From contig JBGUGD010000024.1 of assembly GCA_041697335.1 (NCBI GenBank), positions 1 to 11,395 of the forward strand: DNA of 11,395 nt. Reading direction: 5' to 3'. This DNA comes from Vampirovibrionaceae bacterium NZW_1234. GTDB lineage: Bacteria; Cyanobacteriota; Vampirovibrionia; Vampirovibrionales; JAGQHJ01. Both the position numbers and the translations under genes were made by a program. Below, piece by piece: positions 3,237-11,395 of this stretch (position 1 is the first letter of the stretch; every line of letters starts with the position of its first letter). The notes beneath the pieces are model-generated. The model was not told the origin of the DNA, did no database searches, and worked only from the letters and a program-made list of their open reading frames with translations.

Positions 3237-3962
3237 ATGACGAACCTTCTATTACAGCCCGAAACCTATTTCAGCTTACTGAGCTTAACACTGCTTGAAA
3301 TTGTTCTCGGTATCGACAACGTTATTTTTATTTCCATCCTGGCGGGCAAGCTGCCTGACGAGCAACGTGACAAAGCCCGCAAGATAGGTCTGGTTGTGGC
3401 CCTGGTTGGACGTTTATTGCTGCTTCTCAGTATTGTCTGGCTGGCCAAACTGACAAAGCCACTGCTCTACCTGGGCACCATCATCACCCTATCCGGCAAA
3501 GACCTCGTTTTATTATTGGGGGGCCTCTTTCTCATCATTAAAAGTACGCATGAAATTTACGAAAAAGTGGAGGCGCCGCAGCACGAGAGCATCCTCGCCT
3601 CACCCAAAGGGTCTTCGTTCGCCAGTATTATTTTGCAAATCATTGTGATTGATATGGTTTTTTCGCTTGATTCCATTATTACGGCCGTTGGGCTTGTCAA
3701 GCATATCGGGATTATGGTAACCGCCATCTTGATTTCTTTAGGCTTGATGCTGGCGGCCTCGAACATGATTGGCGGATTTATCGATCGCCATCCTTCCATT
3801 AAAGTCCTTGCGCTGAGCTTTTTATTGATGATTGGTACGATGTTAACCGCTGAAGGGCTTCATTTTCATTTTCCCAAAGGGTATGTTTATTCCTCGCTGG
3901 TGTTTGCCTTATTTGTCGAGTTTATCAACATCAGGGTCCGCACGAAGACGGCACGAACATAG
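3237..3962 (+). CDS. TerC family integral membrane protein
   Basis: Hallmark motifs LEIVLGIDNVIFI and DMVFSLDSIITAVG, multiple TM helices, and an AGGA RBS. Confidence 0.93.
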   Translation: MTNLLLQPETYFSLLSLTLLEIVLGIDNVIFISILAGKLPDEQRDKARKIGLVVALVGRLLLLLSIVWLAKLTKPLLYLGTIITLSGKDLVLLLGGLFLIIKSTHEIYEKVEAPQHESILASPKGSSFASIILQIIVIDMVFSLDSIITAVGLVKHIGIMVTAILISLGLMLAASNMIGGFIDRHPSIKVLALSFLLMIGTMLTAEGLHFHFPKGYVYSSLVFALFVEFINIRVRTKTART

Positions 3963-4007: not shown

Positions 4008-7000
4008 TTATTCAGGCTGGTGGATCGGTAATCTAAAAAAGAATGTCGCGCCGCGGCCTTCGTCGCTTTCAACGGCGATGCTGCCCCCATGCAGCTCCAC
4101 CAGTTCCTTGGTGAGCGCAAGGCCTAAGCCCGTGCCTTCGTGGTATCGGGAGGACGAGGTATTGATTTGATAAAATTTCTGAAACAGTTGAGCCGCCTTG
4201 TCCTCCGGGATACCCATACCCGTATCCTGGACCTCGCACTGCAACCACTGGTTATCGTCCGACCGGGACACCCAGACGTGAACCTCGCCTCCGGGACAGT
4301 TGAATTTAATGGCATTATTGATGAGATTGACAAAGATCTGCTTGAGTCTTGCCGGATCGGCATCAATGGACGGGAGTTGGGGTTGGAGATGGAAGGATAA
4401 CATCACCTGCTTTTTATGGGCCAACTCGCCCATCATGGATCGAACGGATTCCACCAGCGGCTCAACCGCAATATGCTCTATGCTCAAGGCCATTTTGCCC
4501 GCTTCGACTCGGGACACATCCAGCAGGTCATTCACAATGTCCAGCAAATGACGACCACTGGCGCTAATATTGTCGGCGTATTGGGCCTGTTTGTCAGTTA
4601 AGGCCCCGGCCATCCCTTGGACCATCATTTGCGAATACCCGATAATGGCATTGAGGGGTGTCCGCAGCTCATGAGACATCATGCCCAGGAACTCACTCTT
4701 CTTGCGGTTGGCCTCTTCGGCTTCTTCCCGGGCTTTCTGCTCGAGATGATAAAGTTCCGTCTGGTAGAAGGACACGCCAATCTGGATGGCAAGGTCCTGT
4801 AATACTTCCAGCTCTTCATCCGTCCAAACACGGTCTTTATAGCATTCTTGCAGCGTAATGACGCCGTAAGGGTTGCCTCGGAAACGGATGCCTGTTCTGA
4901 GGATGGCGCTGGTGCAGTACTTGTTGATTAAAAGCTCCTCAAACAGATGGATGTAGTCTTCTATCTCTTCTGCCGGCATATCGTTACTACAGGGGAGCTC
5001 AAACATGCGCTGCTTTAAATCATTCCGGTAGTCCTCGGCGTTGTTGAAACGCTGCGTGCGCATGGCTTGTTCAATCGGCAAATCCCGGCTCAAGGCCTTG
5101 AGAATTTTCGGGGGGAAATCCGCGACATCGATGACCGGAACATCGGGATCCCGATAATACTGGCCCGAAACGGACAAATTAAGATAATTGTCCGTCTGGA
5201 CATAGCGCACAATATAGGCTCGCGCAACCCCGAAGAACGCGCCGATTTCCGTGGCGATTTCGTCGAGCAGCGTATCGATTTCAAAGGTCTTGTTCATGAT
5301 TTCGGCAATGCGCCGCATTAAACGCTCACGCTCATAACCTTTGGTGAGGGCGAGTTCCGCCAATTTTCGATCGGTAATGTCAACGCAAGAACCGACCAGG
5401 CCATACAGTTCGCCATTGGGTAAAACACTGAGGGCGCCTGACGTTAGAAACCAACGGAATTCCCCATTCGCCTGCTTCAGACGCTGCTCCAGTGTATAGG
5501 GCGCTCTTTGTGCGATGGCGTTTGCAACGGTTTGCCTGACCGAGTCCAATTCGTCCGGGTGTACATAAGCCGCCCACGTATTATCCTGAAACTCGTCGAA
5601 GGTGGTCCCGAAAAATGACAGACCCGCCTTGTTGAGGTACGTCATCCTGAAATCCGGATCTAATGTCCAGACAATGTTGGGCGAGGCATCCGCAATGGTG
5701 CGAAAACGCGCTTCGCTTTCTTTGATCGCAATTTCCGCTTTCTTGCGCTCGGTCAAATCCTGCATGGAACCAATCATACGCACAGGCTTACCCTGTTCAT
5801 CGTGCAAAACAAAGCCACGATCATACACAAACTTGAACCCCCCATCTCCGGTTAAATACTTGTATTCATCGGCCCAGTGCACTTGCCCTGAATCAATCAC
5901 GGCGTGGAGGCCCTGAATCACCCGGTCCCGATCTTCCGGATGGAGATGCTCCACCCACCAGGAAGCATTTGAATCCACGTCCTGTCTTTGATAGGAAAAC
6001 AAGGCATAAATGCCCTCGTTCCAGGTGATTTGATTGGTTAGCAAATCCCAATCCCAAATCGCATCCTGGGTTGCCTGGCTGACCAGTTTGAACCATTCAT
6101 TGTTTCTCTGTAACGTCTGTTCCACATGCTTGCGATCGGTGATGTCGGTATAGGTGCCGAAGTATCCGATAAATCGGCCATCGGGCGTTAAACGGGGAGC
6201 CCCGACAGCAAGCATCCAGCGATATTCCCCATCGGCCCGGAGAAAACGGTATTCCTCGCGAATCGGGAGTTGATTCTCGAAGGCGTGTTTAAACGCGGCT
6301 TCGAATTTGGGGGCGTCTTCAGGATGAAGCGTGCAGAGCCAGCCAAGCCCCGTCAATTCCTCCAGTTTGCGGCCCGTAAACTGAAGCCAGGGTTTATTGA
6401 AATACACCGCATTGCCGGTTTCATCGGCCATGGCCATATAGATGGGGGCAGTATCGGCCAGATTCCTGAACCGCAATTCACTTTCCAGCAGCTCTTGTTC
6501 GGCTTGATTCCGTTGCGTGACATCGCGAGTAAAGCAGCGCGTGTGGATCAAACGATGGTTTTCCACATAAACGCTTGACGTGATCTGTACCAGCTTCATG
6601 GAGCCATCCTTGCACCGAAGGCGCGCTTCATAGTCCACAAGAGGCTCCTGGCGGGCGAATCGGGACAGGATATCCGTGACGACCGCCTCATCACCATGGA
6701 ATTCCGCAATATGGTGGCCGATGTATTCCTCGGGAGAGTAGCCCAATAACTGCAATACAGCCCGGTTTGCCCGGAGGATCATGCCGTCAGGTCCAACCCA
6801 GTGCAGACCTAAAGATGCATTCTCAAAGAAGTCCATCAGCATCGCTTCGTTATGGCGTGACGCTTCTTGTGCAGGGTTTTGTTCGGCAATGTCGCGCACC
6901 GTCACCGTGAACAAGGGGGCGCCCTCGGCGGGGACCTGGCAAATGGTCACCTTACACATCAATTCACTGCCGTCTTTGCGCAAGACAGATGTTTCAAGCT

Positions 7001-7346: not shown

Positions 7347-7664
7347 TGAATTTGTCTGTTAGACCCGTAAAGGCTTCTATAAAAAGGGAATACAGCATTT
7401 TCCACTTTGATTGTCACAGAAAGCTACCCGACCGTCTATTAGACAGGTGTTTATTTTGTTTTTATCTTGATTACATTTATTACAGCAACAAACCGCCCCG
7501 TATCATTCGCCATAAGATGGTGAGGATTTCTGAACCCAATGAATCTTCAGTCCTGACGCCACTCCAACAACCATTCTCTAGGAAAGCCCAACCAGACATC
7601 GACAACAGAGGCAACAATCCACCAGATTGACCCAGATGGATGACAGTCAGCCCCTATGCATGGC

Positions 7665-8510
7665 TTACGTCTTGTCAAGAAAATACAGGTTGGAGTAGGT
7701 CTCCGAAGCAACAACCTCTGACAACGAATTCACCACAGGGTTAAAGCGGAGTAACTGCTGTGCACGATCAGAAAGAAGACGCTTTTGCTCTTGCGGAATA
7801 AAGATACGAAGCTGTGGTCGCTGATGTCGGGCACAGTTATACCCGACCACCACCATGGGCCGAGGCTCCGCTGTGGTATTGGGTGTTCCGCGATGCAGGG
7901 CTCTGACATCCCGGATCATAACATCCCCAACAGACATCACTAATGGAACCAACTGTGCTTCAGCCTGGCCGGATCGAACCCGATCCTGACATTCGGTATC
8001 CGTCAGCAGATGCGTCCCCGGCGCGATCTCGAATGGGCCATTTTCCAACGTCACATCCACCAGCGGAAAATTTACAGCAAACTGAAATGGGCGAACCGGA
8101 TCCGCATCCGGCATATCTGGCGAACATTGCAACATGTCCCGATGAATCACCTGATAATCGGAACCTTGTAATGGCGTATCGGTAGCCAGCTCAGGCATGA
8201 CGATGTCTTCTTGTGCCAACTGTTCAATAATCGCTAGAATATCCGGATCTTCATAGATAGCAGGATCGGCAAACGGCGGGATAAACGGTAAGGAAATATA
8301 GTATCGATTCGGGCCACGAGCTGACGCTGTGCCATCTTGAATGCGTTCGTTGAGCAACGGAAGAAATTGACGCTTCCACTCGGCTAACACATCGACAGAA
8401 AAGTGATGCGGCAAAATACAATAGCCGTCCTGCAACACCTGACTGATAAAAGCCTGATGCTGCTCGGCAGTATACCGGCCTTCTTGAGTTCGGTTCAATA
8501 GATTCGCCAT
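7665..8510 (-). CDS. Phytanoyl-CoA dioxygenase (PhyH) family Fe(II)/2-oxoglutarate dioxygenase
   Basis: QDGYCIL, an HxD motif (QVIHRD), PLVDVTLENGPFEIAPGTH and a distal His in LHRGTPN...R. AAGGA RBS upstream. Confidence 0.88.
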   Translation of the reverse strand: MANLLNRTQEGRYTAEQHQAFISQVLQDGYCILPHHFSVDVLAEWKRQFLPLLNERIQDGTASARGPNRYYISLPFIPPFADPAIYEDPDILAIIEQLAQEDIVMPELATDTPLQGSDYQVIHRDMLQCSPDMPDADPVRPFQFAVNFPLVDVTLENGPFEIAPGTHLLTDTECQDRVRSGQAEAQLVPLVMSVGDVMIRDVRALHRGTPNTTAEPRPMVVVGYNCARHQRPQLRIFIPQEQKRLLSDRAQQLLRFNPVVNSLSEVVASETYSNLYFLDKT

Positions 8511-8764
8511 GGCTTCGTCCTTGCTCGATAAAGCGTATTTAATGCTAATCCATATTGCGCTGAAAGAAAAATTTCGGCCTAATTCTGTTTTAAACGGAGC
8601 TTTTCATCCGATTTTTCAATCGGTTCTCTATCCAAACACAGCAGAGATTTACCGTAACAAACCCAACTTCTCAAAAACGCCCCTCCACCCAAACTCGGAT
8701 ATAGAGTGGGCCCAACAGGATTCGACTGACAACCAAGGGATTATAAGATCTATATTTTTAATTA

Positions 8765-8865
8765 GGGTTTGCCCCGGCCAGACTGGTCCATAGCCCTTGC
8801 TGAGCCGAGCGGCGAAGCTTAGGGATAGCGATGGCAGTAACATCGCTGCTGAACGGATTTTAAGT
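8765..8865 (-). repeat. Degenerate tRNA-Leu(UAA) 3'-half fragment, copy 3, interrupted by a 44-bp insert
   Basis: gggtttgcccc-ggccagact[8785-8828]cga--tggcagtaacatcgctgctgaacggattttaagt aligns to 9782..9841 with about 4 substitutions, small deletions and the insert. Confidence 0.85.
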
Positions 8866-8922
8866 TTCTTGAAACGAGGCTATTTTAACGCCTTCAACAC
8901 AGGAAGATTAGATATCCATTCA

Positions 8923-9354
8923 TTAACTGTTTATCTTCGATTCCAGTTTGGCAAAATCGATAAACGGATTGTAGGTTGGTATTTCTGCCACAAAGTTCTT
9001 GTATCTTTCGGCGTTTTGCCCTCGCAGATCAGCCGTAATCGTTTTTCCTTGCTCATTCAAATAATCCACTTGATCCATTGGTTGGTTATGCAACACAGTG
9101 AGAAACCCTGTTTGGGAAAACACATCACTCGGGGTTAACGATTGTCTTTGTTTGACTTCAGCAATAAGATCGCTTTCGGTCACCAACACATCCTGAAAAG
9201 GAGCTTGTTTATCGCCTGTAGCCGCATGTAAAATACCAACGGGTTTGCCAGATTGCACATGACCACTTACCAGTGTTTCAATCTCGTGGAACGGTTTACC
9301 CAAAAGGGGGATTCTTGCCCCGAACCGTATTGAACCTATCATCATCATCCTCAT
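8923..9354 (-). CDS. Hypothetical protein (~143 aa, ...GSIRFGA...), cassette 2 cargo
   Basis: The ORF fills almost all the space between tRNA fragments 2 and 3. There are AGGA/GAGG RBS candidates and several possible Met starts (MRMMM). Confidence 0.75.
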   Translation of the reverse strand: MRMMMIGSIRFGARIPLLGKPFHEIETLVSGHVQSGKPVGILHAATGDKQAPFQDVLVTESDLIAEVKQRQSLTPSDVFSQTGFLTVLHNQPMDQVDYLNEQGKTITADLRGQNAERYKNFVAEIPTYNPFIDFAKLESKINS

Positions 9355-9382
9355 TTCCTAACAATCCAACCCTAAATAAAAT

Positions 9383-9442
9383 GGGTTTGCCCCGGGCCAG
9401 ACTCGAACTGGCACCGACATCGCTGCCAAACGGATTTTAAGT
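9383..9442 (-). repeat. tRNA-Leu(UAA) 3'-half fragment, copy 2 (att-like)
   Basis: 60 bp, 59/60 identical to 9782..9841. Confidence 0.93.
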
Positions 9443-9455
9443 TCGTTTTAAAAAA

Positions 9456-9749
9456 CTACCTTAACTCATAACCTGCAGGGAGATGGGGATTGGTAATATT
9501 TTTATCTTCTTCAGGCGTATTTTTTCGGAAAGATAAAGTTGATAGATCTACCATGTCAAAAATAGCATTGGCGGCAGCTTTATCTGCTTGATTCTGGACT
9601 TTCAGTGTAATGGTATCCTCTTGCTCTTGTAGAGCATAGTTACGAACACCTTTAAAGATATAAAGTTGCTTTTCCAAGTTCTCACGCTGGAAGCTTGGAA
9701 ATCTGGAAAAAGTAAATACCCCGCTAAAACGTACCGAAGACAAATTCAT
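9456..9749 (-). CDS. Small hypothetical protein (97 aa, MNLSSVRFSGVFTF...), cassette 1 cargo
   Basis: The ATG at 9749 has a GAGGG RBS. The ORF-track start at 9851 runs through the tRNA fragment and is rejected. The stop lies 13 bp before the next tRNA fragment. Confidence 0.75.
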   Translation of the reverse strand: MNLSSVRFSGVFTFSRFPSFQRENLEKQLYIFKGVRNYALQEQEDTITLKVQNQADKAAANAIFDMVDLSTLSFRKNTPEEDKNITNPHLPAGYELR

Positions 9750-9781
9750 ATTGATTTTTCCCTCAGGCTGCTCTGAATAAG

Positions 9782-9843
9782 GGGTTTGCCCCGGGCCAGA
9801 CTCGAACTGGCACCGACATCGCTGCCGAACGGATTTTAAGTCC
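9782..9843 (-). repeat. tRNA-Leu(UAA) 3'-half fragment, copy 1 (att-like; not a complete tRNA)
   Basis: The minus strand reads GGA-CTTAAAA-TCCGT (anticodon TAA), a long variable arm CGGCA-GCGA-TGTCG, T-arm GCCAG-TTCGAGT-CTGGC, acceptor 3' strand CCGGGGC and discriminator A, then AACCC. There is no D-arm or 5' acceptor strand upstream. Confidence 0.93.
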
Positions 9844-10055
9844 ATCGTCACAAAGCCATTCTTGTACTTTTGTGAAGCGGTTAAAACCCTCTGACCAGTT
9901 CAATACTTCACTTTTTAGGGTAAAGTCTCACCGAAGGCTGTCTGTCCAAAAAATGAGACTCGAGTCTCACTGGTAGACGTGACAGATTAAGGATACTACA
10001 GTCCCCACATGGCCCGCTAGCCTGTCGCTTCATGTCACAAGCCATACTGTAGTAT
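9843..10055. repeat. Cluster of short direct/inverted repeats next to the att-like fragment (candidate integrase arm/accessory sites)
   Basis: A perfect 16-bp palindrome tgagactcgagtctca (9954-9969); agtctcac at 9924-9931 and 9963-9970; a 10-bp inverted repeat atactacagt (9993-10002)/actgtagtat (10046-10055); and an imperfect direct repeat gtcacaa(a)gccat at 9847 and 10034. Confidence 0.6.
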
Positions 10056-10073
10056 AAGTTTCGCTGATTAGAG

Positions 10074-10427
10074 CTACTTTTCTTGAGAAATGGCGGCCAA
10101 CATGGCCTCCAGACGAGGCAAAGTTTCAGGCAGGACAGTGGAAGCCGTCACCCAAACACGCTTCATTGAGACGCCAAGGTACTCATGGATAAGGAAATTC
10201 CGGAAAGCAATGATCTGAGGCCAAGGAATCTCAGGGTATTTGTCCTGAAGTGGTTTTGGTATCTTGTTAGCCGCCTCGCCAATCACTTCAAAGCACCGGA
10301 TAACAGCAAAGATAGTCCGTTCATCGGCCAGAAACTGCTCTTCAGTATAGCCCTCCAGAAACTGGCCGACTTTACCAGCATACTCCAGCATGTCTTCCAG
10401 GTAGGTTGCTGGGTCCCGTTTTGTCAT
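10074..10427 (-). CDS. hepT: HEPN-domain (DUF86/HepT-like) RNase toxin
   Basis: Contains EVIGEAA, IPW, and the RX4HxY motif RNFLIHEY. It overlaps the upstream nucleotidyltransferase gene by 4 bp (ATGA). Confidence 0.88.
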   Translation of the reverse strand: MTKRDPATYLEDMLEYAGKVGQFLEGYTEEQFLADERTIFAVIRCFEVIGEAANKIPKPLQDKYPEIPWPQIIAFRNFLIHEYLGVSMKRVWVTASTVLPETLPRLEAMLAAISQEK

Positions 10428-10738
10428 AGCTCAATGGCCTCTGGCAGAATGTATTTTGCCAAGCGCGGCTTCAGGGCTGATTTTTCAACCAGATCCACCT
10501 TACAGCCCAAGGCTTCCTGCAATCTGAGCTGGATTTCAACAAACTCAAAAGCACCGATCTTGTCAGATTCGGCTCCGGGGCGAAACTGAATCAGCAAATC
10601 GACATCACTGGCAGGAGTGGCATCTTCCCGGACCCATGAACCAAATAAAGCTAGCGACTCAATGGGCCATACGGATTGAAGCTGCCGTTTAAGGCGTCTC
10701 AACTCTTCAATCAGTTCTTCTCGGTTATGGAATGTCAT
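10424..10738 (-). CDS. mntA: Minimal nucleotidyltransferase (MNT) antitoxin
   Basis: GSX10DXD motif (LFGSWVREDATPASDVDLL), KVDLV, and a GAGG RBS. Confidence 0.88.
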   Translation of the reverse strand: MTFHNREELIEELRRLKRQLQSVWPIESLALFGSWVREDATPASDVDLLIQFRPGAESDKIGAFEFVEIQLRLQEALGCKVDLVEKSALKPRLAKYILPEAIEL

Positions 10739-10764
10739 TTTATAGACCTCTTTTGTATATCATT

Positions 10765-11394
10765 TTAAGTGATCTCCATAGCAGAAACAGCCACATCATA
10801 AGAAACACCAATGGTCTCAAAGTGTTTCTGTCCGCAAGCAATCTTTTCAGCCTCTGGAAGCCTGAGCTTTAGCTGGTCCTTAGTGGCTTTGGTTTCCCGA
10901 ATCATATAGACGATATGGCCGTTCTGCTTTAAGATCGCCCAATCCGGGTTATAGTCTCCAATTGGGGTTGGCACACGGAACCATGCGGGCAGTTTAATGA
11001 AATATTTGACGTTCTGCATGGTTTCAAGGTCTTCAGCAAACTTCTTTTCAACCATTGAGTCATACATGATGTAGTTATAGACTGACTTTTCGGTGGGAAC
11101 GATCTTGTCCTTAGCGAACTCTAGCTTATGTTCCTCAGTCCGGAAGAGAGACATTTCATAGGAGATTTCATTCAGTTTCTCGTACTGAATACCCTCAATC
11201 ACCAGATGGTGAAGGACTTGCTGAATTTCTTTCACCACCGCATCCATAAACCGCTGAGGATTTACCGTAAAATCATCCAAACGGCCTGAGCGAGACAAAA
11301 CCTCAAAAATGGTTCGCCGGGTCAGCTCCACCCTGCTTTGAACGTAGGTCAGAATGTCGGGTAGCTGAAAAGCCGTAACGGCCTCACTGGAATC
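10765..11394 (-). CDS. Type III restriction-modification Res subunit, C-terminal endonuclease part (partial; start outside window)
   Basis: The frame is open to the window edge (DSSEAVTAFQLPDILTYVQSRVELTRRTI). Motifs DSxxEKKFA, KLPAWFRVPTPIGDYNPDWAI and ETK fit the PD-(D/E)XK nuclease of Type III Res proteins. Confidence 0.87.
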   Translation of the reverse strand, partial: DSSEAVTAFQLPDILTYVQSRVELTRRTIFEVLSRSGRLDDFTVNPQRFMDAVVKEIQQVLHHLVIEGIQYEKLNEISYEMSLFRTEEHKLEFAKDKIVPTEKSVYNYIMYDSMVEKKFAEDLETMQNVKYFIKLPAWFRVPTPIGDYNPDWAILKQNGHIVYMIRETKATKDQLKLRLPEAEKIACGQKHFETIGVSYDVAVSAMEIT

Positions 11395-11395
11395 G

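Follow-up and report, generated by a model that had tools for sequence, protein, structure and literature searches.

We analyzed an 11,395-bp stretch of DNA, hereafter the window, which is the entire contig C31 (JBGUGD010000024.1) of the metagenome-assembled genome (MAG) of Vampirovibrionaceae bacterium NZW_1234, an assembly of 41 contigs and 3.70 Mb that is 94.75% complete and is called G000 below. In its right-hand part, three displaced 3' halves of a tRNA-Leu(UAA) gene delimit two very small units, A and B. Our favored explanation is that serial insertion built up a tandem array in the sole native tRNA-Leu(UAA) gene of this genome and that the window holds the far end of this array, and we put the probability of this account at about 0.5. 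The repeats themselves are supported as scars left at the att site (attachment site) by recombination in the anticodon loop, where tyrosine integrases classically cross over in tRNA genes.

If our account is correct, recombination would take place at CTTAAAA, the core within the anticodon loop, and A and B would be att-bounded insertion units lacking an integrase, each with its own tRNA 3' half and one open reading frame (ORF). By the standard mechanism of tRNA islands, the entry of a unit would rebuild the tRNA with the native 5' half and displace the earlier 3' half outward. The likely order would be that copy 1 is the original 3' half, that A then arrived with copy 2, and that B followed with copy 3; the last arrival would be a large defense-type island, X, bringing a replacement tRNA-Leu(UAA) and a tyrosine integrase fused to a helix-turn-helix (HTH) domain. 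A and B were most likely brought in through recombination by a tyrosine integrase that another element provided, and they could in principle leave, alone or together with X, as cis-mobilizable elements (CIMEs) by accretion. Their ORFs would presumably be transcribed by read-through from the tRNA promoter for as long as the unit adjoins the tRNA.

A repeat search of the window found the three tRNA segments as direct copies at 8832-8884, 9409-9461, and 9808-9860, with spacings of 577 and 399 bp, as well as a 76-nt repeat pair (9380-9455 and 9779-9854) of 89% identity. All three copies lie on the minus strand. Each takes in the anticodon loop (CTTAAAA), the anticodon stem (3' strand), the variable arm, which is long, the T arm, and the acceptor stem (3' strand) as far as the discriminator A, and carries an AACCC trailer. 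Copy 3 occupies 9781..9848, its core starting at 9840, its tRNA end at 9787, and its AACCCC trailer reaching 9781. Copy 2 occupies 9382..9441 (core start 9441, tRNA end 9388, trailer AACCCA), and copy 1, which is decayed, occupies 8765..8864 (core start 8864, tRNA end 8770). Over 63 nt, copies 2 and 3 share 97% identity, with a single T/C difference (TTTGG against TTCGG), and over 66 nt copy 3 shows 97% identity with the intact tRNA-Leu(UAA) of the nearest relative, G004, a member of the same family and of another genus, and the only relative in the family with a match. In copy 1, 5 nt of the T loop are replaced by a 47-nt stretch (8785-8831), one acceptor C is deleted, and the variable arm carries four substitutions. 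The 47-nt stretch occurs nowhere else in the genome, and its folding is no better than that of shuffled sequences. The first-pass annotation of this DNA had proposed three direct copies of a tRNA-Leu(UAA) 3' half, and the repeat search and the alignment to the G004 tRNA show that they are real. Its periods of 399 and 618 bp hold when counted from the 3' ends of the copies; measured from core to core in the anticodon-loop register (from the start of CTTAAAA), the second period is 577 bp, a difference that arises because copy 1 is damaged.

Neither ARAGORN nor Rfam reported a whole tRNA in the window. The native 5' half was found on another contig of the same genome, C16, at positions 59151-59189, where it reproduces the first 39 nt of the G004 tRNA-Leu(UAA) letter for letter, stops after ...GGACTTAAAA, and gives way to unrelated DNA. 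When this half was joined in silico to copy 3 or to copy 2, ARAGORN recognized an 86-nt tRNA-Leu(taa); when it was joined to copy 1, no tRNA was recognized. No further copies of either tRNA-Leu(UAA) half occur elsewhere in the assembly. Two other candidates were set aside: a tRNA-Leu(UAA) group I intron was dropped, as there was no Rfam match and duplicated halves flank the units, and a second, intron-containing tRNA-Leu(UAA) gene reported by ARAGORN on contig C5 was rejected, as Rfam matched neither a tRNA nor an intron there.

Unit A (8865..9441, minus strand) measures 577 bp from core to core; in it, copy 2 and a spacer precede ORF A, and a tail of 58 nt follows. Unit B (9442..9840, minus strand) measures 399 bp; in it, copy 3 and a 37-nt spacer that contains GAGGG precede ORF B, and a tail of 14 nt follows. 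ORF A (8923-9354, minus strand) encodes 143 aa (139 aa from the ATG at 9342) and ORF B (9456-9749, minus strand) encodes 97 aa, and in both units there is just one ORF per interval, on the strand of the tRNA. No PF00589 integrase match was obtained on C31. The earlier description of these intervals, with one ORF co-oriented with the tRNA in each, no integrase, and essentially nothing but one att copy and one ORF per unit, was therefore accurate.

The lengths of the two ORFs are beyond chance, being reached in 11 of 5000 shuffles for ORF B and in 3 of 5000 for ORF A. Scored against a codon table from 1181 long ORFs of the same genome, for which 100-codon pieces have a mean of 0.28 bits per codon and a standard deviation (SD) of 0.12, ORF A reaches 0.167 and ORF B 0.181 bits per codon; each value is the best of the six frames, so the codon signal is in frame and lies within about 1 SD of the genome mean. 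GC content is 0.42 in unit A, 0.38 in unit B, and 0.51 in the left flank, and GC at third codon positions is low (0.41 in ORF A and 0.32 in ORF B). Both ORFs are orphans. They have no family match in Pfam, PHROGs, NCBIfam, or PADLOC, a word-index search of 5.8 billion proteins returned only the ORFs themselves, a full phmmer scan of 1.84 billion representatives returned only ORF A for ORF A, and no longer relative of ORF B emerged among the 54 candidates scored. AlphaFold2 run without an alignment gave pLDDT values of 46 (ORF A) and 51 (ORF B), and the ESM Atlas gave weak leads only (<0.9; recognition value 2998 for ORF B). Taken together, A and B probably carry foreign orphan genes.

The units show no similarity to island X, to islands of relatives, or to the rest of the genome, tblastx included, and the intergenic pieces of the array are unique in the genome. 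There are no inverted repeats of at least 20 nt in 7500-11395, and the array contains 3 promoter-like sites against a mean of 2.6 in shuffles.

The ends of the units carry a further feature. Immediately left of the core, the sequence reads ACGAA in unit B, AAGAA in unit A, and ATGGA in island X (9845-9841, minus strand, ahead of the copy 3 core), as against ACGGA in the native tRNA gene, so that the anticodon-stem 5' strand is imitated in part. The same partial mimicry is present in islands of four other genomes of the order (G034, G046, G024, and G048). Such stem mimicry at unit ends would follow if site-specific recombination had produced the two junctions of every unit. Moreover, each unit has a whole tRNA 3' half rather than the core alone and must therefore have carried its own copy.

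The end of contig C16 and the right-hand part of the window appear to be the two ends of one island, X. On this interpretation, X would have split the native tRNA-Leu(UAA) gene at a 10-bp core, GGACTTAAAA, without rebuilding it, and would have supplied a replacement tRNA. Copy 3 would then serve both as the attR of X and as the left end of unit B, with the attL at C16:59151-59189. About 150 bp beyond the native 5' half, C16 holds a whole tRNA-Leu(UAA) with its own CCA (59304-59389; ARAGORN, and Rfam with 56.8 bits), which lies 1.6 kb from the contig end, is the only tRNA-Leu(taa) of the genome that ARAGORN reports without an intron call, and differs in sequence throughout from the window copies. 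Beyond this tRNA lies a 387-aa ORF that encodes an HTH at the N terminus and a Phage_integrase domain. This integrase falls below every specific NCBIfam cutoff and is most like Xer recombinases; on TIGR02249, the integron integrase model, it scores 37.2 bits against a cutoff of 265. An intact tRNA-Leu(UAA) and a tyrosine integrase had been expected outside the window. The integrase and the 5' half are indeed there, on C16, but the native gene is not intact, being split by X. Additionally, we note that C16:59151-60636 presents X with its own promoter, the whole tRNA-Leu(UAA) with CCA, and the HTH-fused tyrosine integrase.

The right arm of X reaches to the right-hand end of the window (9841..11395, minus strand). 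It encodes HepT (10074-10427), MNT (10424-10738), and a type III restriction endonuclease of which only the C-terminal part is present (10765-11394), the gene running off the contig; the matches come from Pfam, NCBIfam, and PADLOC. The arm also holds a hairpin GTGAGACTCGAGTCTCA followed by a T run at about 9950-9973. The palindrome GAGACTNNAGTCTC has two occurrences in 3.7 Mb, one in the right arm of X, about 110 nt ahead of the copy 3 core, and one at C16:59244, 55 nt past the C16 core. A near-identical hairpin, GTGAGACTC(G/A)AGTCTCA, was seen genome-wide only at window positions 9950-9973 and at C16:59242-59260, near the presumed ends of X, and could be a terminator or a protein-binding site.

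The first-pass annotation had also proposed a search for arrays of tRNA fragments and ORFs in other genomes, and units of one gene were found again at tRNA-Phe in G000 itself and at tRNA-Leu in G046, a genome of another family in the same order. In G000, an intact tRNA-Phe(GAA) at C39:28022-28097 adjoins a unit of 1225 bp (Phe-1; GC 0.36) with one 286-aa ORF, which ends in a Phe 3' half at 26841-26802; beyond it, a unit of ~3 kb (Phe-2) with one UvrA-like 881-aa ORF ends in a partial Phe fragment. No integrase match was obtained on C39. The stretch searched around this array (G000:C39:23000-28600) also contains a borderline tRNA-like element at its positions 3719-3790, after the first fragment, with an Rfam tRNA score of 29.2 bits and a mismatched acceptor stem. 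In G046 (C25, 13449-14255), a 766-bp unit follows tRNA-Leu(UAA) and holds one complete Hypoth_Ymh/TIGR02391 gene, which starts 28 nt past the tRNA, has a full-length domain (profile positions 3-119 of 119), and takes its stop codon from the TAA of a decayed Leu 3' half that lies 766 bp from the core of the tRNA itself. A further 11.9 kb then closes with a perfect 53-nt repeat. The Ymh gene gave weak PADLOC matches to PD-Lambda-3_B and Aga_HEPN. With A and B, these units make five that hold a single gene (A, B, Phe-1, and Phe-2 in G000 and the Ymh unit in G046), and in all five the ORF is co-oriented with the tRNA.

Across the order, such fragments are uncommon. Displaced Leu(UAA) 3' halves were detected in 5 of the 49 genomes searched (G000, G024, G034, G046, and G048). 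An intact tRNA is present at 37 of the 39 Leu(UAA) loci examined, and a downstream repeat accompanies it at 2 of these 37 (in G034 and G046), one of them short; the downstream sequence available at these loci ranges from 0.2 to 14 kb.

There are also displaced fragments of other tRNAs, two of which lie beside Leu sites. A decayed tRNA-Met(CAU)-type 3' half with the loop CTTATAA occupies 8707-8748 of the window on the minus strand, 22 nt after copy 1. It extends from the anticodon loop to the 3' end, is 80-90% identical to relatives, and can be aligned with the tRNA-Met of G028; no whole tRNA matching it is present in the assembly. A 7-nt inverted repeat, ATATAGA/TCTATAT, flanks it. In G004, a tRNA-Phe(GAA) 3' half (C165, ~5238-5300) lies 14 nt after the intact tRNA-Leu(UAA) and is identical to that of the G000 tRNA-Phe, CCA included; beyond it come a DNA methyltransferase-like ORF and then a large ORF that looks DUF262-like by eye. 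The content after tRNA-Leu in G004, which represents another genus, differs from that of the window, and in the left flank the PhyH gene alone matches.

Elsewhere in G000, displaced fragments of tRNA-Val, tRNA-Ile, and tRNA-Pro were found. Two tRNA-Ile(GAU) 3' fragments (G000:C22:187-1138 and C15:431-506) lie 931 bp apart and have a ~23-nt trailer in common; the interval between them has no clear ORF and contains a ~55-nt repeat twice. In G016 (C7 5959-8688), a run of CCA-encoding tRNAs (Ile-UAU, Phe, and Ile-GAU) together with a tRNA-Val lacking CCA stands upstream of tRNA-Leu(UAA), and this run looks foreign. Far from the array in the window, an 88-nt direct repeat (1580-1667 and 2619-2706, 98% identical) that is confined to this window bounds a 1039-bp segment with a GC content of ~0.6, against 0.37 in the adjoining DNA, and with a 216-aa ORF that has no family match. 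This segment may be another insertion or duplication unit.

Several observations weigh against serial insertion of the small units as we have described it. Our read evidence consists of Logan contigs from four runs of hot-spring or microbial-mat metagenomes at 2-5x depth, and these contain no alternative joints or variants of the array, which at such depth does not argue against circles or variation. Neither ORF A nor ORF B was met with a second time anywhere searched, and movement therefore cannot be shown by comparison. Exact-pattern scans of Joint Genome Institute (JGI) metagenome contigs gave 0 matches, and a pattern scan of genome contigs gave 73 loci, among which the G004 contig was the sole relative, the rest being proteobacterial or other tRNAs that have this T arm in common. 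C16 and C31 are linked by inference rather than by assembly. The attP of X appears to consist of the core only, unlike those of the units, and so the integrase of X may not have moved them. Apart from the tRNA half, A and B have no motif in common (k-mers are at shuffle level), and there is therefore no sign of arm-type binding sites. The protein models of both ORFs are of poor confidence. In G046 the inner fragment is decayed and the outer one perfect, so a simple order of age fails there, and the history of such loci can be more complex, with composites moving as one, for example. Finally, neither the tRNA-Met fragment beside copy 1 nor the tRNA-Phe fragment after the G004 tRNA-Leu is explained by the account that we favor.

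It is possible, although we think it on the unlikely side, that A and B were never mobile at their present size and are instead deletion remnants of multi-kb, integrase-bearing islands, their ORFs being either a surviving gene or chance fusion frames. The units lack an integrase, as such remnants would; the decay of copy 1 implies that the array is old; the ORFs are orphans with poor structure models; and no population variation was seen in the low-depth contigs. Degenerated elements and partial tRNAs scattered through islands are reported in the portion of the tycheposon preprint drawn on here (10.1101/2020.12.28.424599). In addition, no integrase family was found among the 15 larger ORFs scanned in the islands of G034 (11.5 kb) and G046 (12.7 kb), and integrase loss therefore seems common here. 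Yet each of the five one-gene units keeps exactly one ORF, nearly filling the unit and co-oriented with the tRNA, and this flush geometry, five times over, argues against remnants of random deletion. The G046 gene has a full-length domain, there is no pseudogene debris, C31 and C39 have no PF00589 match, and tblastx links the units neither to islands nor to the genome. Both att junctions, together with the stem-mimic cores, would rarely survive random deletion.

An explanation in the opposite direction, which we judge quite unlikely, is a dedicated integron-like platform in which tRNA 3' halves act like attC, cassettes consist of an att site and an ORF, an integrase works in trans, and expression comes from the tRNA promoter. 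The geometry of att site, spacer, and ORF over 0.4-3 kb with co-orientation in 5 of 5 units would fit it, as would the existence of two arrays in G000 and one in G046, promoter-like sites no commoner than in shuffles, and Met and Phe tRNA fragments with similar loop cores beside Leu sites. Against it, no dedicated integrase adjoins the arrays, that on C16 belonging to X and scoring far below the integron cutoff; no cassette was found twice; no variation or circles were seen in the low-depth contigs; and few intact tRNA-Leu(UAA) loci have a downstream repeat. A broader form of this idea, unlikely too but a shade less so, would have a platform shared across the lineage, with circles of ~0.4-3 kb that carry one tRNA half and a promoterless ORF, inserted into the anticodon loop by an Xer-like recombinase in trans, read from the tRNA promoter, and reshuffled or exported alone or with an island; the Leu, Phe, and G046 arrays would be its instances, and the Met and Phe fragments would reflect cross-use of similar cores. 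We regard it as highly improbable that the array is an artifact of assembly or binning, whether a chimeric contig formed from the repeated halves or a union of C16 and C31 from different organisms. The window is one whole contig of 11.4 kb in a MAG of 41 contigs, and tRNA sequences common to abundant other organisms pile up at 9794-9845. Separate Logan contigs of 100% identity nevertheless bridge the array junctions: 8536-9002 spans the left flank, copy 1, and ORF A, 8986-9412 joins ORF A to copy 2, 9383-9621 joins copy 2 to ORF B, and 9654-9826 joins ORF B to copy 3. In addition, a single tRNA of the nearest relative is matched by the 5' half on C16 taken together with copies 2 and 3. No contig of the source organism covers 9827-10174, so that the join of copy 3 to the arm of X depends on the MAG assembly alone.

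If serial insertion did occur, and 399-bp units were moved in trans, tRNA hotspots would trade single genes and not whole islands only. This would amount to a fine-grained route of gene flow, for defense genes, for example, in poorly sampled bacteria, and to a simple natural design for site-specific insertion of a single gene. The locus lends itself to tests of movement in trans, since it defines the sites and the junctions to be expected and offers a candidate integrase. X, for its part, would be an example outside the hosts of phages of a tRNA gene that is broken while its replacement is brought along.

Among known systems, the array most resembles tandem islands of the Islander type, which, in the descriptions drawn on here, target a tRNA gene, restore it, leave displaced 3' fragments as direct repeats, and stack by repeated insertion. 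Here, too, each unit ends distally in a tRNA-fragment repeat whose identity starts from the anticodon loop, and in silico the inserts restore the tRNA with the native 5' part (copies 2 and 3), the gene now being split by X. Islander islands as described there have their own integrase and are usually several kb or more in size, whereas our units are of 399 and 577 bp, with a single ORF and no integrase. CIMEs are att-flanked elements without recombination genes that lie in tandem with an integrase-bearing element and can in principle be excised alone or as a composite by the integrase of that element. They are described as kb-sized derivatives formed by deletion from ICEs (integrative and conjugative elements) or IMEs (integrative and mobilizable elements), with att flanks like those of the helper, as in the streptococcal accretion of the ICESt1/ICESt3 type. 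Units A and B are like them in being att-flanked and in lacking recombination and transfer genes, but we found neither X nor any other island to resemble A and B, and the attP of X is of a different design.

Two published systems come close to the process as a whole. In Alteromonas, additive flexible genomic islands hold a varying number of cassettes at tRNA or transfer-messenger RNA (tmRNA) hotspots, with a partial tRNA repeat as the telltale sign, and these cassettes vary between strains and recur near-identically in other species, as far as the text cited here goes (PMC4898812). A and B differ from the cassettes described there in being single ORFs, and neither a second copy nor variation was found in the searches made. 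The Prochlorococcus tycheposons integrate at island tRNAs, with tandem elements parted by a partial tRNA alone and with remnants, according to the cited portion of the preprint (10.1101/2020.12.28.424599); the elements described there carry integrase and replication modules, and units A and B carry neither. Cassette addition at tRNA genes, marked by partial tRNA repeats, is thus already in print in both of these sources, and the first-pass label of an undescribed system is therefore too strong. A keyword search of the titles and abstracts of the open-access literature (supplements not covered) returned no description of sub-kb, single-ORF units without an integrase.

X itself recalls tRNA-dependent lysogeny of actinobacteriophages, described for mycobacteriophages, in which the common core of attP and attB is only ~10 bp long and lies inside a tRNA gene (PMC10865867, in the part relied on here). 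Judging from its sequence, X seems to have the same short core, the same failure to rebuild the tRNA, and a tRNA of matching isotype on the element; unlike the phages treated in that source, it is an island of defense genes in this MAG, known from sequence alone.

The likeness to integrons, which the first-pass annotation had stressed, lies in small, promoterless, co-oriented, single-ORF units with one site each, stacked beside a fixed site that bears a promoter. The differences are that there is no IntI, attC, or attI and that the sites are double-stranded halves of a tRNA gene; with an integrase at 37 bits against 265 and repeats that are tRNA halves rather than attC, membership in the integron family fails. 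The analogy is fair for the geometry, and the mechanism can be compared by analogy only. We thus see this locus as an extreme miniature of a known insertion-hotspot process rather than as a proven new gene-capture system, and what sets it apart is the smallness of its units.

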